This document shows, piece by piece, positions 7,095-61,284 of a stretch of 64,000 nt of DNA; the stretch's first letter is position 1; every line of letters begins with the position of its first letter. The stretch comes from a virus, in the IMG/VR virus record IMGVR_UViG_3300031418_000004, one strand, 5' to 3'. The position numbers and the translations under genes are program-made. Below the pieces are notes generated by a model that was not told the DNA's origin, made no database searches, and worked only from the letters and a program-made list of their open reading frames with translations.

Positions 7095-7096
7095 AA

Positions 7097-37750: not shown

Positions 37751-37787
37751 AAAAGGGGAAACCATTGCGGTTTCCCCTTTATTTTTT
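37751..37787. terminator. bidirectional rho-independent terminator between the convergent blocks
   Basis: AAAAA GGGGAAACC-ATTGC-GGTTTCCCC TTTATTTTTT has a 9-bp perfect stem flanked by an A-run and a T-run. Confidence 0.85.
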
Positions 37788-38250
37788 ATAACGCAAATCC
37801 AACTGCCACAATCGCAATCAAGCGAGTGATAGTTAGTTGTAAGTCTGCTGCTTTTTGTTCACGAATCCGCGCTTCACGTTCCGCTGTTAAATCCTTCGCA
37901 AGACCATTCGATCTTAATTCTTCTGCCTGCGCCAATTCCAACAGTTTATTTCTTTCGTCGATAGTTTTATTCAGAACAACGATCAACTGATTTGTTTCAT
38001 CAGTACGATTCTTTGCTGCCGAATAAAGAGCGATCAAGTCTGCCATGCCTTTGTTATCCAGCGTAGCTAACTTTTTACCTTCGAAAACTTTCACTGTTAC
38101 TTCTGGCTTAGCAGGAACCTCAACCTTATCCCACGTAAGACGCTCAACTCGCGGAATCTGCTGCATGGTTGTTTTCTGCTGATCCGGAATTGCTCCCAAA
38201 CCGCTACAACCACACAGCACAAAAGCGCACAGAAGAATTAATATCTTCAT
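37786..38250 (-). CDS. spanin-like outer-membrane lipoprotein with coiled-coil region and hydrophobic C-terminus
   Basis: MKILILLCAFVLCGCSG (lipobox). A heptad-rich segment, NRTDETNQLIVVLNKTIDERNKLLELAQAEELR. C-terminus TRLIAIVAVGFAL. ATGA overlap with the upstream gene. Confidence 0.55.
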   Translation of the reverse strand: MKILILLCAFVLCGCSGLGAIPDQQKTTMQQIPRVERLTWDKVEVPAKPEVTVKVFEGKKLATLDNKGMADLIALYSAAKNRTDETNQLIVVLNKTIDERNKLLELAQAEELRSNGLAKDLTAEREARIREQKAADLQLTITRLIAIVAVGFAL

Positions 38251-38528
38251 AGCTTTTTATATTCCTCGCTCAACTTATCCATGTCATCGTTTTCGTTTGC
38301 CACTACATCCGGCTTTCTTTCCTCATTCAACTTACTAACATCTTCCGTTACCGCTTGAGCATCTTTCCGTTGCTGCTCTACGGCTTTCTCGCGAATTTTG
38401 TTTTCGGCTTTCTGGAGTTCAGAGATACCGTTAGAAGTTTTCCGTGCGTTTGGACGTACTAAAAAGATTCCTACACATACGCCAATAAAACCAACAAACC
38501 ACAGCCAATACTTTTTGAGCTTATCCAT
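38247..38528 (-). CDS. i-spanin-like protein (N-terminal TM helix plus charged helical region)
   Basis: YWLWFVGFIGVCVGIFLV followed by a Lys/Glu-rich helix. 93 aa. Confidence 0.45.
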   Translation of the reverse strand: MDKLKKYWLWFVGFIGVCVGIFLVRPNARKTSNGISELQKAENKIREKAVEQQRKDAQAVTEDVSKLNEERKPDVVANENDDMDKLSEEYKKL

Positions 38529-38868
38529 TTTGGTCTACTCGCTGGTCGTCAGGTTTTGCATTTGAGTCGTTCGCGTTGTTACGGTTCGATCCGTTGTTGA
38601 TAAGGTTTTCAGCCATAAATGCAACAGAGAAGAACGTAATGTGATTACTTTCGCCAGAGCCGATCAAGTTAACGAAAAGGCCAACACTGACAAACACACT
38701 CGCAATCGTAGAGAACGGGTTGTTTGTCCAGTATTGACGCCAATTCAAACCTTCACGCTTTGTCTTTTGAACGTAATTGACAAGAACGCCGCCTACCCAA
38801 GTGCAAAGAAAGCCGAACAACTGAAACCAATCATAGTGTTTAATCACTTCTTGCACATCAGGTAACAT
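38521..38868 (-). CDS. holin candidate (2-3 TM helices, charged C-terminus)
   Basis: WFQLFGFLCTWVGGVLVNYV, FSTIASVFVSVGLFVNLIG and ITFFSVAFMAENLI. The tail is hydrophilic and Asn/Asp-rich. SD GAGG. Confidence 0.5.
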   Translation of the reverse strand: MLPDVQEVIKHYDWFQLFGFLCTWVGGVLVNYVQKTKREGLNWRQYWTNNPFSTIASVFVSVGLFVNLIGSGESNHITFFSVAFMAENLINNGSNRNNANDSNAKPDDQRVDQNG

Positions 38869-38877
38869 TGTCTACCT

Positions 38878-39117
38878 CTACAGTTTACTATCGTCGATTT
38901 TCCCTTCCTTAAAGAATTGCAGTTTACGCGCTTTCCATTTGGTACTGATACCAGAGAAAAACTCGCTAAGCTGATCATCTGTCAGTTGCGAAGGGCTACT
39001 TACTTCACGCGCTGCCAGTTCCTCACGAAACAGGTTTTGATATTCTTCCTGCAAAAACGATTGGTCTGCGCTGACGCTTGTGAATTCTTTTGCTGCTAAA
39101 GCTACAACAGTTTTCAT
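38878..39117 (-). CDS. hypothetical protein
   Basis: 79 aa. SD AAGGA. Confidence 0.5.
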   Translation of the reverse strand: MKTVVALAAKEFTSVSADQSFLQEEYQNLFREELAAREVSSPSQLTDDQLSEFFSGISTKWKARKLQFFKEGKIDDSKL

Positions 39118-39136: not shown

Positions 39137-39757
39137 TTAACGGAGCCTGAGTCTTAAATTACTGATAACAGGCGCTTTGCTGAGATCTACAGGATTGCTT
39201 TGAGTAAGTGCAAGAGTACCGCCAACAAGTTTCAAATCGGCTGCACTATTTTCATCGCCTACACTTCCCACGGCTGCAAAATAAATCTGCGATGTGTTAT
39301 TTCCAACCGGTATAGCATCCGTATTTAAGTTTGCTGCATTAGACCCATAAAGAGCAATCGCAAACCACGTTGGAGTTCCTGCGCGGTGAATACGAGCGGT
39401 GCGCGTCATATAAGGATCGGACTCTACGCCTGTTCCTGCTGCTGTGCGCAAAATGGTATCGCCTGCGTAACTCAAAACTAATTCAAGTTCGTCGATACGC
39501 GGAAACGCCACACGGTTCCATCCATTCAGCCATCCAATGCCGCCCATATAGTTTGCAGATTTTGGATTCAGAATATTATACAAACCAAGCTGACGGCCTA
39601 CGCCTGCTGCAAACTGAGTTTTGATTGTGTCTTTGTCTGGCATCGTTCCATCAAAGAACATCAATACAGCGGGAAGTGTCGCCAAGTTGTTTGCGCTACC
39701 CATTTTTCCTGAACGTTCATAAAGAGCCGTTCGAATACTTCCGGGAACACAACGCAT
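39137..39757 (-). CDS. virion/tail-fibre-module protein, member of the paralog family (P1)
   Basis: N-terminal VLMFFDGTMPDKD. C-terminal VGSVGDENSAADLKLVGGTLAL. GGAGG lies 5 nt upstream of the ATG. Confidence 0.55.
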   Translation of the reverse strand: MRCVPGSIRTALYERSGKMGSANNLATLPAVLMFFDGTMPDKDTIKTQFAAGVGRQLGLYNILNPKSANYMGGIGWLNGWNRVAFPRIDELELVLSYAGDTILRTAAGTGVESDPYMTRTARIHRAGTPTWFAIALYGSNAANLNTDAIPVGNNTSQIYFAAVGSVGDENSAADLKLVGGTLALTQSNPVDLSKAPVISNLRLRLR

Positions 39758-40669
39758 TTAAGCCTCCGTAACCTGAGTGCCGAACGCAATGCGACAACTG
39801 TTGAAATACGGAAGCTGCGCTTTGCCTGTTTTGGTTTGCGATACGGTGCAGTCAATTCCAACATCCAAAATCAAACCGATATAGTTTTGCTTTGGCGTTG
39901 TGTCACTACTTCCGGCAACGTACTGCATATTTCCTGTTGCGGACACCAAAACAACTTTATCAATTGTTTCTTGTGTGAACGCGTTGGCTTTATTTAAAAC
40001 TTTCCAGTTGAATGCCGAACGAATCACACTGGCATTGCCTGCACTTAAACTGTAACGCAAGTAACGCGCATCAAAGTTAAATGTCTGCACACGCACGTTA
40101 GTCAAGGTTAGTGCTGTCCAGTTGACTGCATCGGTGCTGTATTCAATTTTCATTCCGTTGTATGCGGTGCTGCCGTAATTCAACTGACTAAGTTTGCGGA
40201 AACTGAACACGCTACCGTAATCCACAATCAGATTTCCCGGTGAAGCTGACTGCGCATAAGTTGGCGCATTCGTAGTTTCAAAAGGCGTTTGTGGGTAATA
40301 GCCTGCAAGCATTTGGATCATGCCAAAAAGCTGAGTAGCGTCAAACGTAGCATAAAGCGATTCAGGGTAAACGCAAACGGGATACACATCGACGTAAAGT
40401 TCATCGTTAAGTGATCCATCCTGATAAAACTTTGCGCCCATGCCACAATAACCAAACACATTACCACGATGAGATAGCGTTGTGTTTCCGGCGAGAGAGC
40501 TTGTGCCTTTATTAACAGTAAGCAAATTAATTGCACGTACGTTTTTAAGATCTTCAACGATATTGCCAGTGGGTTCCTTCCCACTGACCATATACATAGC
40601 GGCAACTACACCGCCATTGTTGATGAAATCAAAAACTCGTTCGCGAAGTGCTTTCGTTTCAACGAGCAT
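39758..40669 (-). CDS. structural-module protein with discoidin-like (galactose-binding-like) segment (P2)
   Basis: IEYSTDAVNWTALTLTNVRVQTFNFDARYLRYSL resembles the F5/8 type C signature (..S.D...W......f....aRYlRl). Confidence 0.5.
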   Translation of the reverse strand: MLVETKALRERVFDFINNGGVVAAMYMVSGKEPTGNIVEDLKNVRAINLLTVNKGTSSLAGNTTLSHRGNVFGYCGMGAKFYQDGSLNDELYVDVYPVCVYPESLYATFDATQLFGMIQMLAGYYPQTPFETTNAPTYAQSASPGNLIVDYGSVFSFRKLSQLNYGSTAYNGMKIEYSTDAVNWTALTLTNVRVQTFNFDARYLRYSLSAGNASVIRSAFNWKVLNKANAFTQETIDKVVLVSATGNMQYVAGSSDTTPKQNYIGLILDVGIDCTVSQTKTGKAQLPYFNSCRIAFGTQVTEA

Positions 40670-40678
40670 AATGATTCC

Positions 40679-41236
40679 TTAGTATTGCAGATTAAGATCC
40701 GTGAAGCGATAGCCCTGACCGACAGCAACAGAACCGCCAACAAGTTTCAGATCTGCATCGCTGTCTTCGTTTCCGACAGTGCCAATAATAAACTCATCAA
40801 CATAACTTCCGCTGATCATTGCCGCCCAACTGGATGCGTCCGTTCCGGCGGCGCTGGTGCGAAGGCCAATAAAGAAAGTTGGTGTTCCCGAAGCCATGCC
40901 AACCAGATCAGTTGTTACCGCAGTAAAGTTCACGTTAAGTTTTCTGTTTACTGTGTAATCTGCGTTACGTCCGATGGTTACGTTAGGCTTACGTCCGACA
41001 GTAGCGGAATAGTTCTGACAGCCTAAAAATTGTGTAGAGTTAATTCCAAGCGCAACAAACAACTGAACAGGCGTAAGCTGGTGCGCCTGATTAGTTGTGT
41101 CGGGAACCGCCAGCACGTTAGGCAAAGAGCCTGTGAACAATCCAACCTTACAGAAAAATTGCGTTGAAGGTGGAGTAAAGATTTCCAGAAACGCGCTAAG
41201 CATTTTGCTGGAGTTCATATTTTTGCTGCTAATCAT
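40679..41236 (-). CDS. paralog family member (P3)
   Basis: VGLFTGSLPNVL near the N-terminus. C-terminal IGTVGNEDSDADLKLVGGSVAV. Confidence 0.55.
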   Translation of the reverse strand: MISSKNMNSSKMLSAFLEIFTPPSTQFFCKVGLFTGSLPNVLAVPDTTNQAHQLTPVQLFVALGINSTQFLGCQNYSATVGRKPNVTIGRNADYTVNRKLNVNFTAVTTDLVGMASGTPTFFIGLRTSAAGTDASSWAAMISGSYVDEFIIGTVGNEDSDADLKLVGGSVAVGQGYRFTDLNLQY

Positions 41237-42294
41237 ACCGCCCCCAATTCAGTGATAGGAGTTGGAACAGTAAAGAATGGCGGGTAAAGATCCGTTCCCT
41301 GTTCATACGTTAATCCATTTGGTAAAAACAGATCGAATGAATTTATTTTCTTTGGATCGTCTGTAACGCTATAAGCATTCCACGCAACCAAACGATCATC
41401 AAGGGAAGTCCACTGGTTAGGATGTACGATATTGCAACGCGCATTTGTAGTAAAGCAGTTACCGCTAAAGTCTGCACCAATAGCAAATGGCATCATCAAC
41501 ACGTATCCGATTTTTCCAAACGTGCGCGGAGTACCGTTAACATATTTTCCTAAGAAACGAATTCCTGCGCCGATCAGTTGAGGATTCGCCACACCTTGTT
41601 TCTTCAAACGGAAATAACGTGCAACAACCTTATCTGTTGTGAACGGATAAATTGCTTCATCCGATGTAGAGAATGGTGCGTTGTTCAAAACAGAAACATC
41701 TTTCCATTCGCCGTTGATTTGCGCTTGAATAAGGCACTGGTAAAAAGGGTTCGCTACAGAGTTTGAAGCATAACCCATTTTCAGGAAACCAGTTACTTCA
41801 ACATCCGCACCAAAATCGTAAGTGAATGGATAGCTGATATTACCTGTTTCAACATCAACAGTAACAGTTCCATTTGAGGTCATCAAAAGATTTTGGGCTA
41901 CCTGCTGCTGAGCAAAACGAGGCATCAGCAAACTTCCTATGATGTTTGTAACTTGTTCTGCCGGGCTGGTGCGGTTTGCAACAACAGTAAGATCTCGCGT
42001 ACGGCGCATACGAGTTTTTGGTAAAACCTGTTTGCCGTAAATGGTATCAACTTCTTGCCATGCGCTGTGCAGAGGCCAGTTGTTTGCTGCCGTGCTGCGA
42101 TCCATAGGCTGCATGATCGTGCGACCGCCTGTGCCATAGTAGCCGTGCAAATAAGGACGTGCGTAAAGGCAGTTATTAACTGTGTCCTGCAAGCTGATAT
42201 TGTCGATGTTAGTCGGCATATCGCCTTCCATGAAAAACGCCATATAAATATGGTTTTGCAGTAAGCGTTTTTCTCCGAGATCAAAAAGTTTCAT
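41233..42294 (-). CDS. paralog family member with discoidin-like segment (P4)
   Basis: YMAFFMEGDMPTNI. INGEWKDVSVLNN...VVARYFRLKK. Confidence 0.55.
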   Translation of the reverse strand: MKLFDLGEKRLLQNHIYMAFFMEGDMPTNIDNISLQDTVNNCLYARPYLHGYYGTGGRTIMQPMDRSTAANNWPLHSAWQEVDTIYGKQVLPKTRMRRTRDLTVVANRTSPAEQVTNIIGSLLMPRFAQQQVAQNLLMTSNGTVTVDVETGNISYPFTYDFGADVEVTGFLKMGYASNSVANPFYQCLIQAQINGEWKDVSVLNNAPFSTSDEAIYPFTTDKVVARYFRLKKQGVANPQLIGAGIRFLGKYVNGTPRTFGKIGYVLMMPFAIGADFSGNCFTTNARCNIVHPNQWTSLDDRLVAWNAYSVTDDPKKINSFDLFLPNGLTYEQGTDLYPPFFTVPTPITELGAV

Positions 42295-42881
42295 ACGTCC
42301 TCGCTGATTTTAATGTGTAGGCGATCAATAGGCATGTTTATTTTGTAAGTTCCGTCACCGTTGTTCACAAGCGGAACACCCATATTGATCAAGTCCTGAT
42401 AGCCTATCTCAAAGAAATTATAACAAGCAACGTTATCGTTGATACTTCCAGCCGTGCTATTTGGAATATGAATCAACAGCGACGTAAAGTTTGTCGCAGG
42501 CCACAGGACGCTGTAACTTTGATCAACACTCAAATAACGCCCATCGTTTTCTTGCGTAATACGAATGTTGGCTTGAGGACGCGTAATAACGTTGAACTTT
42601 AAATTAGGCTTGTTGGTTTTAATCCAGTTCACAATCTGCGTCACTGTGATTGAATCGCCGTAGGCTCCAAACAACGCATTCCAATCAGAGTCTGTTAGAA
42701 AATCTCCAGACACGCTATACACAATTGAATCAAACGCCTGATTTTGTGCAAAGTCCAAACGTTCAGTAGGCTGCTCGTAAGCGTAGTTAAATTGCCAGAG
42801 TCCGATCACGCCGTTGGTATTTGCCAGCGTGTGAAAATCAATTTTAGGGCGAATGTTTCGCAACGCTTTTGAAACAATCAT
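42291..42881 (-). CDS. structural-module hypothetical protein (P5)
   Basis: 196 aa, translationally coupled on both sides (ATGA and TAATG overlaps). Confidence 0.5.
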   Translation of the reverse strand: MIVSKALRNIRPKIDFHTLANTNGVIGLWQFNYAYEQPTERLDFAQNQAFDSIVYSVSGDFLTDSDWNALFGAYGDSITVTQIVNWIKTNKPNLKFNVITRPQANIRITQENDGRYLSVDQSYSVLWPATNFTSLLIHIPNSTAGSINDNVACYNFFEIGYQDLINMGVPLVNNGDGTYKINMPIDRLHIKISEDV

Positions 42882-43807
42882 TAGATGCTCCTGTTACTAA
42901 AACGGATCTTTGGACAATAAAGAATATTGTCGTTATCCGGAACAAGCGTACGCAGCGTAAACGGTTTTGCGTTTCCATCGTCGCCATGTCCAACAGTTTC
43001 TGCAAAGTAAGGAATCAAAGGACTATGCTCAAAGTCTCCTGCTACTCGCGTGTTGGTGTGCGCAATAACAATCCATCCCGGAACCTGTAGAGGCGCATTG
43101 GTATAAGGCTGACTGTCACTGACCAAAGTGATTGGCCCGATAGTCATTGGCGGCACTGCATAGATTCGAAAACGTTTTGCAGTTTGTGGATTCGAAGCAA
43201 TATAAAGAGTTGGATCGCCGGATACCGTTGACCAAGTTCCCAAACTTGTTTCGACTCCGCTATCATCAATCGCATTCACAGCAAACGCCATTGATAATCC
43301 ATTGCGTACAATGTGCGTAAGTTTTACTGCCGTATCAAACTCAACGGTGATGCTTCCGCTTCCGAAAGTCTCAGCACGAAACTGACAATCAGCAAGAGAG
43401 TTACCTGCAAGCAGTTGCGTTACGCTGCGTTTGGAATCCGCATCTTCCACAATTCGATCCGGAGTAAGTGCGCGAAAGTTTACGCCCCACTGACGTTTTA
43501 AAAACGTCGAACCTTTATAGTAAAAATTTGCTTGCGGAATCATGTGAACAATATTGCCGCTACTGATCGTAGTAACAAGCCCACGCGCTACGCCAACACA
43601 CTTGTTATAAAGATCTGCAAGCGAGTCCTGCTTAAAGATTTTCGCAATGTCTGCTTCGGTAGAAGGTAAACTTCCCGGCATTAAAAAGCCTGTCCATCCG
43701 CTGCCGCTGAATGGATGACGTGTGTAAGTATTTTCCGCACCCGTATAAACCGTGGCGCGGTGCCCAATCATTGACTGTGCGCGAATGTGCGTATCAATTA
43801 TTTTCAT
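42881..43807 (-). CDS. paralog family member with discoidin-like segment (P6)
   Basis: GFLMPGSLPSTE. PQTAKRFRIYAV. C-terminal AETVGHGDDGNAKPFTLRTLV. Confidence 0.5.
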   Translation of the reverse strand: MKIIDTHIRAQSMIGHRATVYTGAENTYTRHPFSGSGWTGFLMPGSLPSTEADIAKIFKQDSLADLYNKCVGVARGLVTTISSGNIVHMIPQANFYYKGSTFLKRQWGVNFRALTPDRIVEDADSKRSVTQLLAGNSLADCQFRAETFGSGSITVEFDTAVKLTHIVRNGLSMAFAVNAIDDSGVETSLGTWSTVSGDPTLYIASNPQTAKRFRIYAVPPMTIGPITLVSDSQPYTNAPLQVPGWIVIAHTNTRVAGDFEHSPLIPYFAETVGHGDDGNAKPFTLRTLVPDNDNILYCPKIRFSNRSI

Positions 43808-44277
43808 TAGCCTACGTTGCCTCCAACCGGAATAAACGCGTAGTCAGTTTCTTTTACGCTGATTGCTGTAACCAAGAAATCAACGATTGGATTGTCCTGA
43901 GCTACATATCCGATTCCATTTGCTTTTGGTGTAAACGGTGCCGAGCTATCGTACGTTGCGTCGAGGTCTGTTGCTTCCGCAGCGCTGCTAGTGCCAACTG
44001 GAAAGTCAAAAACTTTTTGCCATTGAGTACGCGCATACTGTTGGTTATCCGGATAGATGTTTTTGTTCTGAGTCTGAACACGAACAGGTAAAAGATAGCC
44101 AGTAAACTGATCTGGCAAATACACATAACCACTGCGCGATACGGCTTTAAAGCCGATGATCATTTTTGCTTTATCGTCGTTGGGATAAATCTTTGTTATC
44201 TTTCCGTCAAACGTACTCCAGACTAATCCGTTCTTGATAAAGTAACCAGCGTCATAGGCAGGAATGTTGATGATCAT
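43807..44277 (-). CDS. structural-module hypothetical protein (P7)
   Basis: 156 aa. SD AGGAG. Confidence 0.5.
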   Translation of the reverse strand: MIINIPAYDAGYFIKNGLVWSTFDGKITKIYPNDDKAKMIIGFKAVSRSGYVYLPDQFTGYLLPVRVQTQNKNIYPDNQQYARTQWQKVFDFPVGTSSAAEATDLDATYDSSAPFTPKANGIGYVAQDNPIVDFLVTAISVKETDYAFIPVGGNVG

Positions 44278-44290
44278 TTATTTCTCCTGC

Positions 44291-45307
44291 TTAAAGTTTG
44301 GTGATTGAAAGAGTGCCGAGGTTATAGAAAATCCCTCGCGCATCGCCACGCCACTGACCAAAACGAGAAAGCATGATGCGACTCAAATCAAACACAAGAT
44401 TGTAGGTGATTGGATTCGCAAAAGCTGTATCGTCCATCGCATAAAGCAACACTTCGGTTGTGTCGTTGTAGAGTTTCAAAACTCCATTCACACGTTTCAC
44501 AGCAACTTTTGTCCAAACAATATCTTTTGTAGTGAACAGTTCATTCGAGTTTGTTTGAGCGCGTGACACAAGTAGCCGTGCAGTTTTAGGAGTGTTGTTG
44601 TATTTGTTAAACTCAACAGTCAGTCCATCAGACGGCTGTCCATTACTGCCAATCTCGCTTGTTGCTACAAACAAGCCTTGCGACGTAATGTTGTTGTTTC
44701 CAGTACCAAACGACAAAGTGAAATCCAACTGAAAATCTTTCAAACCGATCTGGCGAACCACCTGCAATTTTGTATCATCAAGAGCGCGATACATATTGGT
44801 GCCGGTTGATCCAACGTTGATTGCAGGCACTGTGATTTGTGAAATGTTCATCTGTGCAATGTCCGTTAGCTGCAATGCGAAACCGCTAACAGTTACCACA
44901 CTTCCCTCGCCTGTCAGATCAACTTCAACGCCACTTGTTTTGTTAAGCAGACTAACATCGGTTCCAATCTTAAACACAAAAGGAACAATGCCACCTAAAA
45001 CCAAGTGAGTTGGAATGCCGACTTTGTTGCAACTGATATTGCACTTTGAAAACTGGAGAATGTTTCCTACCAATGTTCTTGTGCAATCGTTCCCGGTGCC
45101 AAGCAAGGTTCCGGTATCCGCAGGAAGACGTGTTGTATCAAAATAGAAACCACCACCGCTAGGACGATTGTTCAAACACGTCAAAAGATCTTTCTCAGTT
45201 TTGCCGTCACGCAAAGCAATAACATAAGCTGCTTTGTCGTCACTCGCAGAACTTAACAGGCGTGAAATTTGAGGAAGCAAACTCACGTCAAAAACTTTAT
45301 AGTCCAC
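44291..45307 (-). CDS. structural-module protein with LamG/ConA-like C-terminal region (P8); GTG start
   Basis: GTG 45307 lies 10 nt after the upstream stop and is preceded by GAGGAA. The track start at 45385 would overlap by 68 nt. The beta-rich C-terminus includes VAVKRVNGVLKLYND. Confidence 0.5.
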   Translation of the reverse strand: MDYKVFDVSLLPQISRLLSSASDDKAAYVIALRDGKTEKDLLTCLNNRPSGGGFYFDTTRLPADTGTLLGTGNDCTRTLVGNILQFSKCNISCNKVGIPTHLVLGGIVPFVFKIGTDVSLLNKTSGVEVDLTGEGSVVTVSGFALQLTDIAQMNISQITVPAINVGSTGTNMYRALDDTKLQVVRQIGLKDFQLDFTLSFGTGNNNITSQGLFVATSEIGSNGQPSDGLTVEFNKYNNTPKTARLLVSRAQTNSNELFTTKDIVWTKVAVKRVNGVLKLYNDTTEVLLYAMDDTAFANPITYNLVFDLSRIMLSRFGQWRGDARGIFYNLGTLSITKL

Positions 45308-45317
45308 GTTATTTTCC

Positions 45318-46889
45318 TCACGCCGCCTGAATAAGCTGATAGTTTCTGATAGTAGCGATAGCCGAAGTTGTTGAATCGTACGCACCTTTAACTGTCAGAA
45401 GTGTTTTGGTTATCGGCAGAACTTTATAAACAAACGAGTCGATAACTTTACCGTCAACCGAAATTGTGTGCGTTGCCTTATCTGCATCGTAAACATATTT
45501 GAATTTCACAAACGTTGTTGTACGCAAAGCACTATACAAACTCCACGCTCTTTGAACTTTACTGGACTGTTGATTGTTCCAGATAAGCAGGCCCGTTTCA
45601 TTGCTACGGTCAAGCGAGATAATAAAGCGGTCACTAAATGCAGTGGCTGTTTGCAGAATCAAAAACTCACAATCACGATCCGTTACATCCTGCTTGTAGT
45701 CAAACTGGATTGAAAAACTTTTTGTAGGATCAAAAGTATGATTCGCACCTTGAACTTCGATTGAACTTCCCTTTGTTCCTTTGATTGCGTTGTCACTTTG
45801 CTGCGCCCATCCGGTAAACGTGAATGGAGTTCCAAACGCATCTTTGCTAGGACTCGCGCCAAAGTAACTTGCAGAAAACGCCAGCTTAGCATTAGGATCA
45901 ACCCAAAGAGGCAAGCCATTATTTGCAATCAGTTCTGTGCTTGTGCGTACCTGAACAACTTCCGCAAACTCACCAGTGGAAATATTCAAACTTTCCAGTT
46001 CGATCAATTCACCACTATTTTTCGCACCAACTTTTGTCGCCATAAAACGAATGTCGTGTGTGCCAATTGCCTGAGCACCAAAGTTGCTATCCGGAATAAG
46101 CAGAATCGCATAGCCAATTGTTTTGGTAACTTTCGCTGTACTCACATCGCCCATTGTTGCAGGCAATACACGACGAACACTGTTAGCGTTTCCAGTTACG
46201 CGCAAAATATCTGTGTTGATTGTGCCGCCTGCTCTGTTTGTGTCGAGGTTTGCCGGAACAGTCAGAGTTGTTTGAGTACCTATTGAATTTGTGCCGCCCG
46301 TGCCTTGTGCTGCAATCAGAAGCGTTGCTGCCGTTGAACGATCATAGCTGTCTGCTAATACCGCATCAAAAGTAATTGCACGTCCGAAATCTAAATCAGC
46401 AACGTTTGCAATTTGTGATGTAGTGTTGCCTACAAAATCATAAAGCTGACGCAAAGTTCCAACAGGAAAGCCGGGATACAAACCCATGCTGATATGCTGC
46501 TTCATTTTGCTGTTGCCTGTTGGAAGGTCTACAGCGTAAGCGGCATCAACATCAAGTGCGCTGCTACTTGCAGTTGTGCGACGTGGAAGAATGCTGCGCG
46601 GATAGTGAATTGTTACGCCCATCTTAGGATCGTAAACACTTCCCGCAACTGCTTTCCATCCGTACGAATGCGCCTGCAAGAACGACAAGCCTTCTGTTGT
46701 TGGTTGCAAAACAATTCGAGAAGCCGCAACAGAATCGCCAACAAGTTTGCGATGATCCTGAAAGTATGCGGTCAAGTCGGACGGCATATCACCCTCAAAG
46801 AAATACGCTTCGACTTCGATTCCTGTTGACCATGTTCCCGGCAACTGTGCGACAGAAAAAGGCAAAAGGTTAGAACCTAAAAGACGCAT
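45318..46889 (-). CDS. paralog family member, long form with LamG/ConA-like C-terminal domain (P9)
   Basis: EAYFFEGDMPSDL at the N-terminus. C-terminal FSIQFDYKQ...FLILQ...FIISLDR...FKYVYDADKATHTISVDGKV. Confidence 0.55.
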   Translation of the reverse strand: MRLLGSNLLPFSVAQLPGTWSTGIEVEAYFFEGDMPSDLTAYFQDHRKLVGDSVAASRIVLQPTTEGLSFLQAHSYGWKAVAGSVYDPKMGVTIHYPRSILPRRTTASSSALDVDAAYAVDLPTGNSKMKQHISMGLYPGFPVGTLRQLYDFVGNTTSQIANVADLDFGRAITFDAVLADSYDRSTAATLLIAAQGTGGTNSIGTQTTLTVPANLDTNRAGGTINTDILRVTGNANSVRRVLPATMGDVSTAKVTKTIGYAILLIPDSNFGAQAIGTHDIRFMATKVGAKNSGELIELESLNISTGEFAEVVQVRTSTELIANNGLPLWVDPNAKLAFSASYFGASPSKDAFGTPFTFTGWAQQSDNAIKGTKGSSIEVQGANHTFDPTKSFSIQFDYKQDVTDRDCEFLILQTATAFSDRFIISLDRSNETGLLIWNNQQSSKVQRAWSLYSALRTTTFVKFKYVYDADKATHTISVDGKVIDSFVYKVLPITKTLLTVKGAYDSTTSAIATIRNYQLIQAA

Positions 46890-47389
46890 TAGAATTCTCC
46901 TGATACGCGGTTAACAGTTGCGATAAAGTTTCCGTTGCGAATATTGCTTTCGCTTAGAATCAAATCTGCGCCACTGCCTTTTGCGCCAATAGACAGAACC
47001 AGAAAACCACCGTACGGCGTGTTGTTGATTGCTGTGTTGATCACGATGCAGTTATAAAGCGCGAGAAGGTTATCAAGTGTGCCTGCGTTAAATACACCTT
47101 TCAACTGAGCGCGTACACGGAACTTTAGTTTGTTGGTTCCGGTATTCAGCCAGCTAATAGGCATTACGTTGTTTACTGTAAGCAGCGTAAGAGAAGCAGT
47201 TACGCCAATTGCAGCAAGAGAAGTTCCCTCAGTCAAAACAATGTTTGCAGGATCAGGAACTTTGCAAAGCGCCGCTGTGTGAAGAATGTTTTCCAATCCG
47301 TATTTGATTGGCGGCTCATTCGGATCACGCTTACCCGCATCAGGAACAGGAACGTTCGACTGATTTGCGAGGATACGAATTATTTCCAC
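46889..47389 (-). CDS. paralog family member (P10); GTG start
   Basis: C-terminal LSIGAKGSGADLILSESNI. GGAG lies 7 nt upstream of the GTG. Confidence 0.5.
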   Translation of the reverse strand: MEIIRILANQSNVPVPDAGKRDPNEPPIKYGLENILHTAALCKVPDPANIVLTEGTSLAAIGVTASLTLLTVNNVMPISWLNTGTNKLKFRVRAQLKGVFNAGTLDNLLALYNCIVINTAINNTPYGGFLVLSIGAKGSGADLILSESNIRNGNFIATVNRVSGEF

Positions 47390-47443
47390 GGTTTTTCTCC
47401 TTTGTTTTATTTAAATTAGACACAACAGCAGCAAGAGAAAAAA

Positions 47444-48535
47444 TTACATATCAAGAATTGTTTGCACAAAAGGCAATGGCGTATTGAGCGACACCGTTGG
47501 GTAATCGCCGGGAAGATTGCTGCCAGATTGCGTTAAGTCAGTTACGAAATCACGAATCACAATGTTATCTTTTTCCAGATCGCGATAGGCAATCACAGAG
47601 AAACCTAACTCAACTGTTTCGTCTGTTCCATTACTCTCAACATAAGGCGCTTTTGAAATTGGCGTTGCTGTTACTGTACCTATGATTTCAGGCGATCCTA
47701 TATAGTAGGAAGAAGAGGAACCCGTTCCGCTATCGTTGAAGTTATAAAGTTGAGAAGGACGAATCAAACCGATACCGGGTACATTACTTATTTCGCCAAA
47801 CTTTACGGTAACATTTCCTGCGCCTATACTGCTATAAGAATAACCTCCAAGTGATGAAACTTTTTTCTGTGTTGTATCAAACAAAAGCTGTCCAAGTGCG
47901 GTAGTGTATTGATAACTTCGCGTTGCAGTATACCAACCACCGTACGGCGGGTTATATTGTTTTTGATACGAAGAAGAAGAATAAGAAGAAGTTGATTGAG
48001 CGGCGCTTGTGTTAAAATCCATAACGGTAGCGGAATTAGTTATTGTTTTTACGCGCTTTGGATAAAGAACAAGTTTATATCCGTATCCATTTGTTTTGGT
48101 ACTGAAAGCAACCGTACTTCTTTTATCGGGATCTGAAAGCGAAACAATACTCGCGTCTAAGAACGAGTAATCCCCGGAAGATATTGTTCCAGATTTTTGC
48201 TGATTGCTTTTAACGCAACCAAACTGATAGAACATGTTTGCAATCGCAGTGCCTGTAGTAAATCCGCCTGCGTTGTTGCTTACTTCCAGCGTCCTGCCTC
48301 CACCCACCGTTATACTGGCAAGATAGAGTTTATTGTTTCTGTATCCAGCAAGTGCGCTACAAGTTAAGTCGCTGCCATTCAGATCCACGGCAATTGATCG
48401 AGCTTCTGAAATAATATCTAAAAACGATTGCGCGTCTGTTGGTTTGGGCGTGTTATTGTCGAAAAGGTATTGAATGCTGTCGCAAGCGGCGCGTTCGTTT
48501 TTATATTTTAAAGCACCTACGCTGCAAAATTTCAT
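47444..48535 (-). CDS. structural-module protein, Ser/Tyr-rich (P11), first gene after the fibre terminator
   Basis: 363 aa. SD GGAGA. YLFDNNTPKPTDAQSF near the N-terminus. Contains SSYSSSSYQKQYNPPYGGWY. Confidence 0.5.
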   Translation of the reverse strand: MKFCSVGALKYKNERAACDSIQYLFDNNTPKPTDAQSFLDIISEARSIAVDLNGSDLTCSALAGYRNNKLYLASITVGGGRTLEVSNNAGGFTTGTAIANMFYQFGCVKSNQQKSGTISSGDYSFLDASIVSLSDPDKRSTVAFSTKTNGYGYKLVLYPKRVKTITNSATVMDFNTSAAQSTSSYSSSSYQKQYNPPYGGWYTATRSYQYTTALGQLLFDTTQKKVSSLGGYSYSSIGAGNVTVKFGEISNVPGIGLIRPSQLYNFNDSGTGSSSSYYIGSPEIIGTVTATPISKAPYVESNGTDETVELGFSVIAYRDLEKDNIVIRDFVTDLTQSGSNLPGDYPTVSLNTPLPFVQTILDM

Positions 48536-48550: not shown

Positions 48551-48579
48551 AATAAAAAAGGGAAGGCCGAAGCCCTCCC
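48551..48579 (-). terminator. rho-independent terminator after the tail fibre gene
   Basis: The minus-strand RNA reads GGGAGGGC-UUCG-GCCUUCCC followed by UUUUUUAUUU. Confidence 0.8.
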
Positions 48580-48590
48580 ATTTAAATTAC

Positions 48591-50771
48591 TTACCAAGCA
48601 CTATCAAGCTGCGCCTGAGTAAACGGAGCTTTCTTCGTGTTGACCGCAGAAGTAGAATCCAGAATACCCATCCCAATATAGGCAACGAATACACGGCCTG
48701 AACTCATTGTAACTTTTGCGCTTACTGCGAACGTGTAGTTGTTACCGCCCAGCGAAACAACAGCAACACTTGAATCGAGAATTACGTTTGCACGTAAGCC
48801 ATCGAAAGAAGGTGCGATTGTAACTTTGGAAGTATCAACCTTGTCACGGTTTTGCGTGTTATGCACAACGTTCCATTCAACTTTGGAAATTGTTTCATCC
48901 GCAGCGAATTTGTTTGCAGCAAGACCGGCAGTAGTATGCAGAACGTTACCCGATGGATCACACAGAGACACACCGTGAGTTTCGCCCGGCTTAACCCAAG
49001 TCTGCACAACTTTCATTGATGCAGAATAAGAGGTATCATCGCGACGGCCCGCAGTTAACATCGGAGTCAGATCCGGCAGGTTGTAGTTCAGCGTTACAAC
49101 TTCGGTTGAACTATCCTGTTTGGTAATTGTTGCAGTAACAGTACCAGCAGCAGGCAGAGTAGGAGTTCCAGAAGTTTTGTATGCAGTGATAACAAAACTT
49201 TTGATAGTTGGATTCTTCCAGTTACCAAACTGAGCACTAACATCTGCACCTGACCAATCAACAGATTTAACAGTTGAAGGATCTTTAGCAACAAGCAGGA
49301 ACGTAATGCTTGCGGTTGAATCTTGCTGGTTCAGACCATAGAACAGTTCATAGTCCGGCTGAACAGGAGTAGTGCCGCCGCCATTACCGCCAGTTTCAGG
49401 AGCAACATATTTGTTTGCACCAGTAACAAACACGATAACAACTTTCATCGCTTCCGGCAGATCGATAGTCAGATTGTTTTCGTCAGTCAGAGTAACTTCG
49501 CTAGGCATGATCTGTTTGCCGTCTGCGTCGTAAACTGTAACTGTACCAAAACGAATACCTGCGTTGTGTGCAAACGTGTAGCTGGTTTCCGCAGTAACAT
49601 CGTTGCCTGTCATATCCAGAACGTACGCCTGCGAACCGTTACCGCTTGCGTTATCCAGAACAAACTTACGAGTTGCAACAGCGCCGTCAACTTCCTGAAC
49701 ATCGCCAGTAAGAATAAGGCTTGCAACTTCACCGCCGTCTGCGTCGATAAAACCAGCCGCTTTAACAGCAGTAGTATCAAGTTCGATTGCGCTTGAAGTT
49801 GTGTTGCGTTTCAGGCCAGTGCCAAATGCAGCAGAAGCAAGCTGAGCAAAACCGACGCCGCCATCAGCAACTTTAACGCCATCAGCAGACAGTGCCAGAC
49901 TTGCGCCATTCAGTTTCAGACTAACGCCATCAGCGCCAACAGAAACGCCGCCAGCAGCATCAACTTTAACTGAAAGTTCGTTGCCATTCAGATTCAGACC
50001 TGCGCCATTTGTTACGCTTGCCATACCGCCAAACACAGACCATGAAGTGCCGTTGTAACGAACGTACTGTTTGGTTGCGTGGTTCCAAGCAATCGCGCCA
50101 TCAGCACGATCCGCAGCAGGATCAAAAACAATTACGAAAGCGCTGTCTTTGTACTGCACGATTGCGTTGTTCGCAACAGATGCGATGGTTCCGAAATCTG
50201 CGTGAAGATTTGCAACGTCAGTCAGAACATAACGCTTACCAGAAACTTTTTCCGGCTGCATTGTTGCATCAGTCTGAACGCCATCAACATCTTCTTGCCA
50301 GTTCATACCAGCCAGTGCGTTTTCAATATCGATCTTACGCGCTGCATCAGTACCGTTAACAGGCGCTGCCAGATTTGAAATACCAAAACCGCCAGCAGAA
50401 AGATCCGCAGTCAGTGCGCCAGAAGCAACAGTCAGTTTTTTCGCAAGCTGAGTATCAACGTGACCTTTACTTACCGCTGCTTTAGAATCCGCAGCAGACT
50501 GATCATCAGAACTCAGTTCCAGCGCAGCAGTCATCGCAACAGAGCCATCAGCTTTTACCAGACCAGAAAGATCTGGAGCTTCACCGCCGCCGTTCAGAGC
50601 AATGATTGATGAACCATTGAAGTATTTATAAACTTTGTCTGTGGTGTTATACCACATGACGGCTTCTTGTGCGGCAACAAGTGAGGCCAGTGAAGGATCG
50701 GATGCAAGCTGCTCACCACGAAGGTTTGCGATTACTGCACCAGTCATTAACTTAATATTGCCAACTTTCAT
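48591..50771 (-). CDS. tail fibre protein
   Basis: 726 aa. The N-terminal part carries fibre-typical phrases: KADGSVAMTAALEL, AAVSKGHVDTQL and GTDAARKIDIENAL. Gly/Ala/Val repeats such as GLNLNGNELSVKVDAAGGVSVGADGVSLKLNGASLALSADGVKV. Thr/Val-rich, beta-rich distal part. Confidence 0.7.
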   Translation of the reverse strand: MKVGNIKLMTGAVIANLRGEQLASDPSLASLVAAQEAVMWYNTTDKVYKYFNGSSIIALNGGGEAPDLSGLVKADGSVAMTAALELSSDDQSAADSKAAVSKGHVDTQLAKKLTVASGALTADLSAGGFGISNLAAPVNGTDAARKIDIENALAGMNWQEDVDGVQTDATMQPEKVSGKRYVLTDVANLHADFGTIASVANNAIVQYKDSAFVIVFDPAADRADGAIAWNHATKQYVRYNGTSWSVFGGMASVTNGAGLNLNGNELSVKVDAAGGVSVGADGVSLKLNGASLALSADGVKVADGGVGFAQLASAAFGTGLKRNTTSSAIELDTTAVKAAGFIDADGGEVASLILTGDVQEVDGAVATRKFVLDNASGNGSQAYVLDMTGNDVTAETSYTFAHNAGIRFGTVTVYDADGKQIMPSEVTLTDENNLTIDLPEAMKVVIVFVTGANKYVAPETGGNGGGTTPVQPDYELFYGLNQQDSTASITFLLVAKDPSTVKSVDWSGADVSAQFGNWKNPTIKSFVITAYKTSGTPTLPAAGTVTATITKQDSSTEVVTLNYNLPDLTPMLTAGRRDDTSYSASMKVVQTWVKPGETHGVSLCDPSGNVLHTTAGLAANKFAADETISKVEWNVVHNTQNRDKVDTSKVTIAPSFDGLRANVILDSSVAVVSLGGNNYTFAVSAKVTMSSGRVFVAYIGMGILDSTSAVNTKKAPFTQAQLDSAW

Positions 50772-54386: not shown

Positions 54387-55205
54387 TTAATCCCCTATTG
54401 CAGAATAGTAGAAATCCCAGCCTACAGTATTCGCACCAGTGGACTTCAACATAAAGCCACCAAGCAAAACGTTTTCCTTAACAGCAGTTCCATCCAAGTT
54501 ATAGATAGAATAAGTTTTTGCCTGATTTGTTGCGGTATTCAAAAACGTAATTGTTAGTGAAGCACAACGGTTAAGGAAAGGTTTGTTGAACGCAACGTTA
54601 ATCACAGACTGCGAAGCCGGAGCAAGCGCACGTCCGAAGTTTGTTGTGCGTCCTGTGTTTGGATCGAAATCGCTGCCAACATACGCACCAACAATTTCTT
54701 TTCCAGTTAACGGATCAAGTACGCTTGAAACTTCGTACTGATTAATAATTGCATCGCGACCAGCAGGGCCAGTTGGCCCGGTTCCACCTGTCGGCCCTAC
54801 GGGGCCAGTTTCACCAGTTGGCCCGATTGGGCCTGTGTTACCAGTTGGCCCGACGCGACCGCGCACACCACGGATTCCCGGACAACCTGCCTGACCGTCA
54901 CGACCATCTTTTCCGTCTTTACCGTCATTTCCCTGAATACCTTGCTTACCTTGTTTTCCTTCTTTGCCTGCTTTCATTTGATCAGCAGTTGGTAATCCAG
55001 TAACAGTTTTCTGACTTCCATCCGGAAAAACAATTGTGAGTGTTCCGGTGTTGCCGTCAAAACTCGCATTAGATAGATCCGTGCTCGGATCTTTTGAATC
55101 AGGATCAAGAAAGCCAACGAGACTGTCTGAAACTTTTCCAAGCACTTGCGTTTTTAATCCGCTCTTTGGACTGATAAGAGCGGGATCGACTTGAACCAAT
55201 CCCAT
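54387..55205 (-). CDS. collagen-like fibre protein, paralog 1
   Basis: Start at MGLVQVDPAL (GAGGAA upstream), matching the paralog N-termini. About 70 aa of G-X-Y. Globular C-terminal domain of about 120 aa. Confidence 0.75.
   Translation of the reverse strand: MGLVQVDPALISPKSGLKTQVLGKVSDSLVGFLDPDSKDPSTDLSNASFDGNTGTLTIVFPDGSQKTVTGLPTADQMKAGKEGKQGKQGIQGNDGKDGKDGRDGQAGCPGIRGVRGRVGPTGNTGPIGPTGETGPVGPTGGTGPTGPAGRDAIINQYEVSSVLDPLTGKEIVGAYVGSDFDPNTGRTTNFGRALAPASQSVINVAFNKPFLNRCASLTITFLNTATNQAKTYSIYNLDGTAVKENVLLGGFMLKSTGANTVGWDFYYSAIGD
54759..54968 (-). repeat. G-X-Y collagen-like triplet repeat tract
   Basis: [70 protein letters not shown]. Confidence 0.9.
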
Positions 55206-55215
55206 TTTATTTTCC

Positions 55216-55416
55216 TCAAACAAGGCTGATAAATTCAGGCTCGTTAGGTTGACCATAATTAGGATTTTTCAGTTTTGTATTGTTTGGAGTCATACGCACC
55301 CAAACCAAAACTCCATCAGGCCGCTGCCATCGAACCTTCATCCCACCTTTGGTTAAATTAGAGATCCATGCGCCTGTGGATGGATTTTTAATTGCTAATC
55401 TTCCAAGTGACGGCAT
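55216..55416 (-). CDS. small hypothetical protein
   Basis: 66 aa. SD AGAGGAAA. Confidence 0.5.
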   Translation of the reverse strand: MPSLGRLAIKNPSTGAWISNLTKGGMKVRWQRPDGVLVWVRMTPNNTKLKNPNYGQPNEPEFISLV

Positions 55417-55428
55417 ATAAATTTCCTC

Positions 55429-58314: not shown

Positions 58315-58318
58315 ATTT

Positions 58319-60334
58319 TTATCCGTAGTTAACTGTTACGTTTACGCGCAAGTCAACATATTGTTCGCCGTCTTCTGGAGTGTAGACTGTTACTACGCCC
58401 ACCCAACCATTCGCAGCAGAAGGAAGTTGCGACAAACTCGCTTGATAGATTGTTCCCGTCCATGTAAAACTTGTCGAAACGCCTTTGATACTTCTGTTAC
58501 CAATTGCTAAAGGCCACGGTTCGTATTCCAAAGTTCCATAAAGATCGCCGTGTTTTGTTTCGTTTGTTTTCTGGAAGTATCCACCAGTGTTAGAAACAGC
58601 AGGCGTTAATTGACTGCCTTTGCCGCCTCCTGTAAATCGGTTTCCATCTTGCGTTGCGATACGGAAGTTTAAGTTAACTGTGTGGTCAACATTTCCGTAG
58701 TAACGCAGAACACCTTTTGTTAACGTCCAGTTTGCTTCGCTCGGCGGATCTTCAACACCCAAACAGTTATACGGAACAAGGAAATCACTAACGTTAAAGT
58801 GTGGCGGTTGAATTGGACACCAGCAGAAATAACTCCAATCGCAACCGATACCGCTTGTTACGCGAATCGTGATATTGCTTCGTAAAACATGTTCAGGATA
58901 TTTCCAAAACTCAAGCGTTCCGGTTTGGCCTGCAAGAAGATTTTCAGTATCAAGCAAAGCCATGTTCTGATCGAAAACTTCAAACTTCGTGTCAAAACTT
59001 CCGGCGCGAACCTGAACCAACTGTGCGCGTTGATCGGTTTGAGTTCCAAGTGCAAAGTTATCTTCTGTTGTTGGATGGCCTGCACTTACAACCCAATCGT
59101 ACTGGCAAGGGAATCTGTATTCACGCGCCCCACGTTCGTTAGGACAATACAGTGAATAATAGAAACTACTAATTGCAGCGTTCTTACCAAAATCTTTTGC
59201 AACAACACGCACCATTAAATCATAGTTTTGTGTTCCTGCCGGATCGTAATAAAAGTACAAATAGCCCAATCCACCTTGCGCTTCCTGTGTACTCGCGATG
59301 CGTTTGCCTGCGTGATAAACTTCGATGTAATCCAAGTTATCCCATGACGTAAAGTTTAAATACGTCCAGCCTGCTACGTTTCCGATGTAATGGAAATATT
59401 CGAATGCGTCACTGCCAACAATTCGATCCTGAATAGGCCAAACAGTTGCGTGACACGGCGCAGGAAAAATTGGCGTACCGATATACTCAGGCGTAATCAC
59501 ATCCGGATAAGTTAAAACATCGTACGCTGCCTGACTATCAAGCGGCAAGTTTGCGCGGTCACTGGTTGCATTAAGTTTAGGTGGAATAACTTGAAGACTC
59601 CAGTTGGCACCTTGCGAACTACGCACACGAATCATGATACGCATTTCATCAGCATCAGGATCGTTTAAAAACTTAATGCGTCCACGTCCACCAACTTTAC
59701 CACAAGTAGAAGCAACGCGAATTCCTTCGGCATAAACGTCAACACTCAAACCTTCTGCGTGATAACTTGCAAAAGAAATTTCAACGTATCCTTCCTGTCG
59801 TGGAATTGCATAAACAGTTTCAGTGATTTGCGCACCGCGACTGTGAACACTCGCCCACGGAACGTTTGGATTTGTCCACGTTCCTAAACCTGCTTGCGAT
59901 GCGAGGCCAGTAGGATCGTAACTTTCAATCGTGCGAATTCCCGGACGCGTTATATATCGTGAAGTTGGAGAAACGTTTCCGATTCCAACTCCAAAACCTG
60001 TGCGCATTGCATCAGGTAAATCATAACCGCCCGGATAACCTTTCAACGGATCGTATTTAGGGCCACGCGAACCGTCGCCTGTTCCACTTCCTTTTGTTGT
60101 GGAAGTTGGCGAACCGCCACAGTTCCCGACTTCCTGATTGATACACGGATCATCAAAGTCTGGATCATAATTGGCGTCGATTTCGTACCAGCGTTTCCCA
60201 TGCAATCCGCGCACTGCGAAAGTATCAACAGTTAATGGTTGCCATGTTTTATCTTTTGTTCGAACGAACATCGGAGTATCAGCGCAATCTAACCAACCGT
60301 TATTCGCTTTATTTCTTACGCGAAATCTTGCCAT
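58319..60334 (-). CDS. large virion structural protein, hypothetical
   Basis: 671 aa. SD AGGGGAA. Beta-rich and Trp/Tyr-rich. No motif. Confidence 0.5.
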   Translation of the reverse strand: MARFRVRNKANNGWLDCADTPMFVRTKDKTWQPLTVDTFAVRGLHGKRWYEIDANYDPDFDDPCINQEVGNCGGSPTSTTKGSGTGDGSRGPKYDPLKGYPGGYDLPDAMRTGFGVGIGNVSPTSRYITRPGIRTIESYDPTGLASQAGLGTWTNPNVPWASVHSRGAQITETVYAIPRQEGYVEISFASYHAEGLSVDVYAEGIRVASTCGKVGGRGRIKFLNDPDADEMRIMIRVRSSQGANWSLQVIPPKLNATSDRANLPLDSQAAYDVLTYPDVITPEYIGTPIFPAPCHATVWPIQDRIVGSDAFEYFHYIGNVAGWTYLNFTSWDNLDYIEVYHAGKRIASTQEAQGGLGYLYFYYDPAGTQNYDLMVRVVAKDFGKNAAISSFYYSLYCPNERGAREYRFPCQYDWVVSAGHPTTEDNFALGTQTDQRAQLVQVRAGSFDTKFEVFDQNMALLDTENLLAGQTGTLEFWKYPEHVLRSNITIRVTSGIGCDWSYFCWCPIQPPHFNVSDFLVPYNCLGVEDPPSEANWTLTKGVLRYYGNVDHTVNLNFRIATQDGNRFTGGGKGSQLTPAVSNTGGYFQKTNETKHGDLYGTLEYEPWPLAIGNRSIKGVSTSFTWTGTIYQASLSQLPSAANGWVGVVTVYTPEDGEQYVDLRVNVTVNYG

Positions 60335-60348
60335 GTCATTCCCCTACG

Positions 60349-61224: not shown

Positions 61225-61284
61225 AAGATTTCTCCAGTGTGGTTTGGTTCAAATTACTATATTTACCCAAACCGCACCGAAAAA

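Follow-up and report, generated by a model that had tools for sequence, protein, structure and literature searches.

The P11 to P1 operon and its relatives

The window analysed here, the whole 64,000-nucleotide (nt) stretch of IMG/VR record IMGVR_UViG_3300031418_000004, comes from an uncultured jumbo myovirus. Between positions 39137 and 48535 its minus strand carries an operon of eleven genes, P11 to P1, directly downstream of FIB, a gene for a fibre or virion protein of 726 amino acids (aa). Two of the products are well supported as relatives of the garland proteins of phages 7-7-1 and Milano, and we argue that the operon as a whole probably encodes structural proteins of the tail tip. The genes, in the order FIB, P11 through P1, are the following.

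48591 to 50771, minus strand: FIB, fibre or virion protein, 726 aa, directly upstream of the operon
47444 to 48535, minus strand: P11, 363 aa, rich in Ser, Thr and Tyr, forming a family of its own (0-4 copies per related phage)
46889 to 47389, minus strand: P10, 166 aa, a strongly conserved single-copy gene, with middle and C-terminal motifs (TPYGGFLVLSIGAKGSGADLIL) in common with the small family
45930 to 46889, minus strand: P9 residues 1-320 (P9N), P6 paralogue by profile comparison (hhalign 95.3%)
45318 to 45929, minus strand: P9 residues 321-523 (of 523 aa), predicted concanavalin-A-like/LamG-type module, family match Laminin_G_3
44291 to 45307, minus strand: P8, 338 aa, whose N-terminal ~155 aa (P8N) are kept in all relatives
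43807 to 44277, minus strand: P7, 156 aa, sole match phrog_28837, of unknown function
42881 to 43807, minus strand: P6, 308 aa, large family; AlphaFold2 (AF2) model with pLDDT 67.6, pTM 0.72
42291 to 42881, minus strand: P5, 196 aa, model match to JA13_077 and a weak full-length hhalign alignment
41233 to 42294, minus strand: P4, 353 aa, large family, predicted discoidin/CBM32-like centre; Pfam F5_F8_type_C E 0.0033, below cut-off
40679 to 41236, minus strand: P3, 185 aa, small family; AF2 model with pLDDT 85.2, pTM 0.81
39758 to 40669, minus strand: P2, 303 aa, large family, predicted discoidin-like centre; F5_F8_type_C E 0.001 and F5_F8_type_C_2 E 0.0012, both below cut-off
39137 to 39757, minus strand: P1, 206 aa, small family, P3 paralogue (phrog_17152; phmmer E 1e-8)

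The tight packing described in the original prediction is borne out: eleven minus-strand open reading frames (ORFs) at these coordinates are joined by TAATG overlaps (P10/P9, P7/P6, P6/P5), ATGA overlaps (P5/P4, P4/P3) and gaps of 0 nt (P2/P1), 9 nt (P3/P2), 13 nt (P8/P7) and, at the widest, 54 nt (P11/P10). P8 most likely starts at the GTG at 45307 (338 aa) and not at 45385, because a GAGGA Shine-Dalgarno sequence lies 7 nt upstream of it and because independent gene calls on four metagenome contigs give 338 aa and the JA13 orthologue has 339 aa. With this start, a 10-nt gap after P9 replaces an apparent 68-nt overlap.

By Megablast the window phage has only short matches (71-77%), to the Dickeya phages JA11, JA13, JA29 and JA33 (Salmondvirus). 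P9 and P6 are 60-65% identical to the proteins of those phages, and 32-39% identical to their orthologues in Erwinia phages (Alexandra, Y3, Yoloswag and the pEa_SNUABM series), Dickeya phage AD1 and Yersinia phage fHe-Yen9-02. These relatives belong to the Lu11/PaBG group, the 'hairy Myoviridae' (PMC7412058; PMC6143709). About 57 jumbo phages of Dickeya, Erwinia and Yersinia, several of them candidates for the biocontrol of fire blight or soft rot, have a syntenic block of 10-16 genes, and every gene in it is annotated as hypothetical. Near base-for-base copies of the window phage occur in 22 metagenome contigs; variation among these copies is almost zero within the operon, making microdiversity uninformative, and a scan of viral contigs with P6 as query returned a single locus.

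FIB matches phrog_16122, 'virion structural protein' (E 1e-126), and its orthologues in Y3, Alexandra and SNUABM_5 are annotated as putative virion or tail proteins. Further upstream runs a series of collagen-like tail-fibre genes (54387-63430).

Two paralogous families in one operon

The window's own copies of these proteins gave Pfam and PHROGs matches that were either sub-threshold or of 'unknown function', and all-against-all comparison of single sequences (blastp, phmmer) produced one link, between P1 and P3 (46% over 63 aa, phmmer E 1e-8), both of which match phrog_17152. Family alignments built from nine related loci and compared profile against profile (hhalign) resolve more. P6 aligns with P9N at 95.3% probability (E 2.3e-8, 231 columns), with no sequences common to the two alignments; P4 aligns with P6 at 90% (E 1.5e-6, 183 columns) and P2 with P4 at 88% (E 3.2e-6). 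On these profiles P2, P4, P6 and P9N are paralogues of one another, which we call the large family, and P1 and P3 form a small family of two to three members per genome. A small-family profile of 160 sequences also aligns with the C-terminal segment of P10 (88%, E 3.1e-6, 33 columns), and with P5 over the full length but weakly (12%, E 0.0024, 134 columns). P11 has no Pfam, PHROG or PDB match, and its profile found nothing in the PDB.

The original prediction had proposed a single family of five to six members defined by short terminal motifs. There are instead at least two families, large and small, alongside the unrelated P7 and P11; the all-against-all profile comparison that it recommended returned links within families and none for P7 or P11. 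Its N-terminal motif holds for P9, P4 and P6, and also for P2, which had been overlooked, because these proteins are homologous over their full length within the large family; P1 and P3 are likewise related, but P11, listed as a weaker case, gains no profile support. The C-terminal motif attributed to P1, P3, P10 and P6 is upheld for the first three, while the link from P6 to the small family is weak but collinear. A regular expression for the N-motif, written after seeing the sequences, has nine matches in all 259 six-frame ORFs of the window, two-thirds of them in P1, P2, P3, P4, P6 and P9 at residues 20-41. When a hidden Markov model (HMM) of the P1/P3 motifs was run over the same 259 ORFs, P9 ranked first outside the family for the N-motif and P10 for the C-motif, both with weak scores.

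The small family is related to garland proteins

The AF2 model of P3, made from 44 sequences, has one significant match in the PDB by Foldseek, 9rkv_A (E 4.7e-4, probability 1.0; the next match has E 0.18), with template modelling (TM) scores of 0.46 (query) and 0.57 (target) for a comparison of a predicted with a solved structure. That chain, whose identity we verified, is the 141-aa gp014 of Agrobacterium phage 7-7-1 (a Schmittlotzvirus, as is Agrobacterium phage Milano), a garland protein. Its dimers lie at the bottom of the baseplate, where they encircle the distal portions of both long and short tail fibres (PMC12796354). The orthologous garland-forming proteins of Milano, gp125 and gp127, resemble T4 gp8 and Listeria phage A511 gp105 in fold and dimer, and the latter two connect the baseplate wedge to the fibre network and may form beads-on-a-string chains (PMC10811340).

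Profile comparison points the same way. Against a profile of eight garland proteins from 7-7-1, Milano, OLIVR4 and Rhizobium phage RHEph12, the 160-sequence small family scores 95.2% (E 2.9e-8, 59 columns), and the merged alignment is collinear over its full length, with all three motifs in correspondence, also by eye: LRIYSGARP with VGLFTGSLP, NGTATWFRI with SGTPTFFIG, and DGSVTDQTGNGDLKL with IGTVGNEDSDADLKL. Common to P1, P3 and the garland proteins are an N-terminal helix, two strands (h-h-F/Y-x-G-x-x-P and G-T-x-T-W-F) and a C-terminal segment G-x-V-x-D-x-x-x-x-x-D-L-K-L. The small-family profile found nothing among PDB sequences. The position of the genes is comparable as well, in that the garland genes lie immediately 3' of the tail-fibre gene in 7-7-1, Milano, OLIVR4 and RHEph12, and P1 and P3 lie 7-9 kb downstream of FIB in the same block. 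That P1 and P3 are homologues of 7-7-1 gp012 and gp014 and of Milano gp125 and gp127 is thus well supported by model and profile comparisons, and the family, which had not been recognised from the bare sequence, can be related to the known garland/T4 gp8-like class, to the garland proteins by the Foldseek match to 9rkv_A and hhalign (95.2%), and to gp8 by what PMC10811340 states of garland proteins.

The fold may extend to other products of the operon. Among the predicted structures of BFVD, the P3 model matches JA13_077, the P5 orthologue (probability 0.98, E 5.4e-3), and JA13_080, the P8 orthologue (0.92, E 0.017), both accessions having been verified. P5 is probably a divergent version of the small-family fold, and P8N is probably small-family-like; G-x-P-T-H and xG-x-D-V-x-L-L motifs are visible in an alignment. 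The C-terminal ~183 aa of P8 are restricted to the Salmondvirus-like lineage, and phrog_34363 is split in two, one half matching the P8 N-terminus and the other the P9 C-terminus. Seven further BFVD structures, with UniProt accessions of the form A0A1C3NF.. and lengths of 151-356 aa, match the P3 fold and may represent a similar array of several paralogues in another phage. Rheinheimera phage Barba31A and uncultured Caudovirales likewise have small matches to the model.

Large-family proteins carry predicted lectin-type modules

P6 is laid out as an N-terminal helix, an N-motif strand, a central discoidin/CBM32-like domain and C-terminal strands with the middle and C-motifs. The centre of its AF2 model is confident and matches the factor VIII C2 domain, the DDR2 discoidin domain and many CBM32 domains (Foldseek against the PDB, probability 0.99-1.0, E 4.6e-4 to 1e-2). 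Six of the 25 members of the P4/P2 family match Pfam F5_F8_type_C (PF00754; best E 2.5e-6), and the family profile finds the CBM32 structure 5zu6_A in the PDB (E 0.0016). A central beta-sandwich of discoidin/CBM32 type in the large family is therefore well supported by these predicted structures and family profiles. The P4/P2 profile also matched the opening strands in the catalytic domain of a GP-PDE (9f49, 9euf; E 0.002-0.013), across what we take to be the motif that starts the GP-PDE TIM barrel; we regard this match, which has no other support, as chance similarity. The P6/P9N family has no Pfam match, and its profile retrieved only histone H4 from the PDB, which we judged spurious.

A second type of module is predicted to follow P9N. 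Among 14 homologues of P9 residues 321-523, three match Laminin_G_3 (PF13385; best E 1.8e-5); the window copy itself reaches only Gal-bind_lectin (E 0.074). In one other IMG/VR locus (L002, UViG 3300014590) the P9 orthologue, at 6264-8477, is 737 aa long and consists of P9N, the LamG module and ~215 additional C-terminal residues that are poorly alignable.

A possible scaffold common to both families

Do the large proteins contain the small ones? Compared directly, the small family and P4/P2/P6/P9N reach hhalign probabilities of 1-18%, which would suit a rival explanation in which the resemblance is coincidental or convergent and the operon is several unrelated families side by side. The same can be said of the search of 1.84 billion representatives with the small-family HMM, which retrieved almost no larger proteins and did not reach the large family, and of the P1/P3 motif HMM, which reaches P9 at E 0.13 only and misses P4 and P6. 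However, the best local alignments to P6, P9N and P4 pick out the same three segments in the same order: the N-terminal helix with the N-motif, a middle G-x-P-T-W-type strand, and the C-motif. Once the central domain is removed, P6 aligns with the small family at 46% (local) and 51% (global, E 2.3e-5, 142 columns); P9N so treated reaches 14%, and P4 and P2 stay low. Secondary-structure elements follow the same order in the P3 and P6 models, and the C-motif of P10 is common to the small family at 88%. We narrowly favour a scaffold common to both families, and regard convergence as a serious contender that we nonetheless doubt.

Modular architecture and divergence between near-identical phages

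Across ten genomes the order of the block is conserved as P10, P9N, P8N, P7, P6, P5, then one or two P4+small pairs, then P2+small. Large genes alternate with small or small-like ones (P9-P8, P6-P5, P4-P3, P2-P1) in all ten, with variable copy number. This alternation points to a gene pair that was duplicated in tandem and, by extension, to products that may pair. Each of the one or two P4 copies in the relatives is trailed by a small-family gene. The copy-number variation that the original prediction had proposed looking for is indeed present, P11 numbering 0-4 and the P4+small pairs 1-2 in different phages. Modules move as well. P9N is a separate gene of 311-322 aa in Erwinia and Yersinia phages. 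In Salmondvirus-like phages it is P9N that is fused to the LamG module, and in Erwinia phages it is P8N; the module also stands free in SNUABM_7 and is absent from the Yersinia phage.

FIB varies too. Residues from ~460 to 726 occur only in the window phage and in L002, and the FIB of JA13 ends at 458 aa. Erwinia phages have an internal duplication in FIB and a separate gene of 198-214 aa that repeats FIB residues ~390-457. With its distal residues varying among relatives, the distal end of the fibre is modular also.

A clue to host range comes from two Dickeya phages. JA11 and JA13 have identical annotated tail fibres and different host ranges, JA11 plating on D. dianthicola and JA13 not (Day et al., PMC6143709). 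Over the ~19 kb that we compared, their flanking sequences are 99-100% identical at the nucleotide level, while the P4 orthologue is 80.6% identical, P3, P2 and P1 are 87-91% identical and one window of FIB is 92.2% identical. The amino-acid differences number 36 in P4, 22 in P2 and 17 in P3, with none in P5 or P6. All 36 changes in P4 fall within the insert (residues 72-291), leaving the terminal scaffold segments untouched, and the changes in P3 lie outside all three motifs. Divergence concentrated in inserts in this way is a pattern typical of host-range loci, although the association is correlative, and it makes the P4-P3-P2 orthologues a specific candidate locus for the unexplained difference in host range between JA11 and JA13.

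In a wider comparison, JA11, JA13 and JA29 (loci L016, L001 and L017) are mosaics with at least three exchange patches: from the C-terminal part of P8 to P5, P4-P3, and P2-P1. JA11 and JA29, for instance, are 99.4% identical in P2 and 80% identical in the C-terminal part of P8.

These patterns bear on the idea that the proteins are purely architectural connectors of the baseplate periphery, with the discoidin- and LamG-like domains serving as protein-protein spacers. T4 gp8 and A511 gp105 do serve to join fibres to the wedge and not to bind receptors (PMC10811340), the lectin-type matches of the window proteins fall below curated thresholds, and P10, P9N, P6 and P5 are single-copy and conserved, as structural parts would be. 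Yet near-identical phages diverge mostly in the inserted domains of P4/P3/P2 around an invariant scaffold, and module shuffling and copy-number variation between phages of different hosts are typical of receptor-binding loci. We consider a purely architectural role rather unlikely.

A proposed lectin-decorated layer at the tail tip

The reading that we prefer, and hold to be probable on the profiles and models described above, is that the operon encodes tail-tip structural proteins that make up an enlarged, lectin-decorated garland or tail-fibre-network layer, which would enclose the fibres at the periphery of a contractile-tail baseplate. The network would be assembled around the FIB fibre, with about half of its members displaying lectin-type domains. 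In the large proteins, the garland scaffold would have received a lectin-type domain between its N- and C-terminal strands. Through the conserved scaffold, large and small neighbours may associate as hetero- or homodimers, in the way that T4 gp8, A511 gp105 and Milano gp125/gp127 dimerise, and these dimers might then chain along or around the 726-aa FIB fibre and P11. The exposed lectin-type modules could bind host surface polysaccharide, adding avidity and helping to set host range, and recombination would exchange modules while the docking scaffold stays constant. The suggestion made from the bare sequence, that these are host-recognition subunits on a common scaffold, thus gains from the garland homology, the lectin-type folds, the location of the JA11/JA13 differences in inserts and the variation in copy number, although its assumption of a single family does not survive.

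Several observations weigh against this tail-tip layer. The resemblance of the P3 model to structures of the T4 gp8/A511 type is not significant in the PDB by Foldseek (E 0.7-0.9; 1n7z_A at E 0.88, 5hx2_C at E 0.70, chains of 9f4a at E 0.5-0.9, with TM scores of ~0.2), and their sequences are not similar. Confidence in the P6 model is moderate, its N- and C-terminal parts being poorly predicted, and its scaffold could not be superposed on the garland fold; the garland profile reaches P2, P4, P6 and P9N at less than 2% (hhalign). The link between small and large families is suggestive, at 14-51% after removal of the central domain and below 20% before. In the window, P2, P4 and the C-terminal part of P9 all fall below Pfam cut-offs (P2 and P4 score 19.6 and 18 bits against 28.2 for F5_F8_type_C), and a discoidin or LamG fold is no proof of sugar binding. 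P7 and P11 have no hhalign profile link to the other families. In the record of Y3, the FIB orthologue alone is marked as a virion protein, and no operon orthologue is. Finally, the JA11/JA13 correlation comes from ~19 kb, and those genomes differ further elsewhere.

The morphology of the group raises another option, in which the operon products make up the curly 'hairs' that line the contractile tail, and garland-type dimer chains are filaments and not a baseplate ring. This morphology is seen in JA11, AD1, Y3 and Lu11, with no gene assigned to the hairs (PMC6143709); dimers of the gp8/gp105/garland type are reported to form beads-on-a-string filaments (PMC10811340); the search of representatives gave only 98 clusters for the small family, nearly all of 160-215 aa; and the named relatives found all come from this phage group. 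On the other hand, cryo-electron microscopy (cryo-EM) places the homologues at the distal baseplate, not on the sheath, in both phages studied, Rak2-like hairy phages such as CBB are not among the structural or sequence hits, and the genes adjoin fibre genes and not sheath genes. We think hairs an unlikely product of the operon. A fuller version, to which we give similarly little credence, would have large-small pairs polymerise into the hairs or bushy appendages of the Lu11/PaBG/Y3 jumbo myoviruses, each bead displaying a discoidin- or LamG-type lectin domain. If such a filament were real, it would be a long multivalent glycan-binding filament on a gp8-type connector fold and a new adhesion organelle.

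Transcription unit and flanking genes

The operon appears to be part of a longer transcription unit. The features that bound it are as follows.

48560 to 48579, minus strand: terminator-like GC hairpin between FIB and P11, 8 pairs of which 6 are GC, then TTTTTT
37752 to 39117, minus strand: four small genes (79, 115, 93 and 154 aa), probably co-transcribed, then the terminator at 37752-37780

The only strong terminator-like hairpins on the operon strand are those at 48560-48579 and at 37752-37780, the latter bidirectional and placed after the four small genes. With no terminator between P1 and these genes, the transcription unit probably extends past P1 to include them. Their order is identical in all relatives, they include a match to phrog_23384 'lipoprotein', and from their sequences they look like lysis-type membrane proteins outside the paralogue set. 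The 154-aa product (37786-38250, minus strand) is laid out like a unimolecular spanin, with a lipobox (LCGC) at its N-terminus and a transmembrane segment at its C-terminus; the 115-aa product (38521-38868, minus strand) has several hydrophobic segments and a holin-like look; and the 93-aa product (38247-38528, minus strand) has a single N-terminal transmembrane segment. No endolysin gene adjoins these three. In two of the metagenome copies (L019 and L020) the loop of the 37752-37780 hairpin, at 37764-37768, is inverted, the other ~12-14 kb compared being identical.

The probable co-transcription of the block with lysis-type membrane protein genes could speak for products that are not virion components, perhaps capsid decoration or intracellular or host-surface-modifying proteins expressed late. 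We find this highly improbable given the homology to proteins resolved in the 7-7-1 virion and the location of the block inside the tail-fibre region; nor was any N-terminal signal sequence seen in the P1-P11 translations, inspected by eye and without a signal-peptide predictor.

The 10-mer TAATTTAAAT has exactly two copies in the 64-kb window, at 48580-48589 and 47409-47418 (minus strand), both in intergenic gaps, upstream of P11 and of P10. It could be a phage promoter element. As a promoter element shared with the relatives it was rejected, for although exact in both window gaps it lacks conservation in the JA phages; the Y3 operon has one copy, in an intergenic gap. Amid the collagen-like tail-fibre genes, an ORF at 60349-61224 (minus strand) encodes an HNH endonuclease (phrog_959, E 7.5e-28).

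Comparison with known systems

Neither the fold family nor where it sits in other phages is new. What does appear to be new, and was not found in the literature searched, is a many-gene array with inserted lectin modules and its likely role in the host ranges of JA11 and JA13. The nearest relatives are the garland proteins of 7-7-1 and Milano, which like P1 and P3 have at least two paralogues per phage and are encoded downstream of the tail-fibre gene. They are about 141-143 aa long, whereas P1 and P3 are 185-206 aa with extra loops. The operon described here differs further in having at least three, and possibly nine, family members per genome, four of which measure about 300-350 aa and have a discoidin/CBM32-type domain inserted, and one of which is fused to LamG. 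The position of the garland proteins in the virion has been seen by cryo-EM, and that of the operon products is a prediction.

There are other parallels. T4 gp8, at 334 aa, is about the size of the large-family proteins. The gp131-gp135 proteins of phiKZ are likewise adjacent paralogues of a jumbo phage with a common docking domain and differing distal domains presumed to bind receptors (PMC13250141), but they consist of an N-terminal domain and a seven-bladed propeller, form hetero-hexameric fibres and have no detected homology to the operon products. Here it is a phage structural scaffold, and not a glycosidase, that has the predicted discoidin/F5-8 type C/CBM32 and Laminin_G_3 domains inserted in it or attached to it. 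More generally, the operon suggests that a small baseplate connector fold can expand by tandem duplication and come to carry inserted lectin domains.

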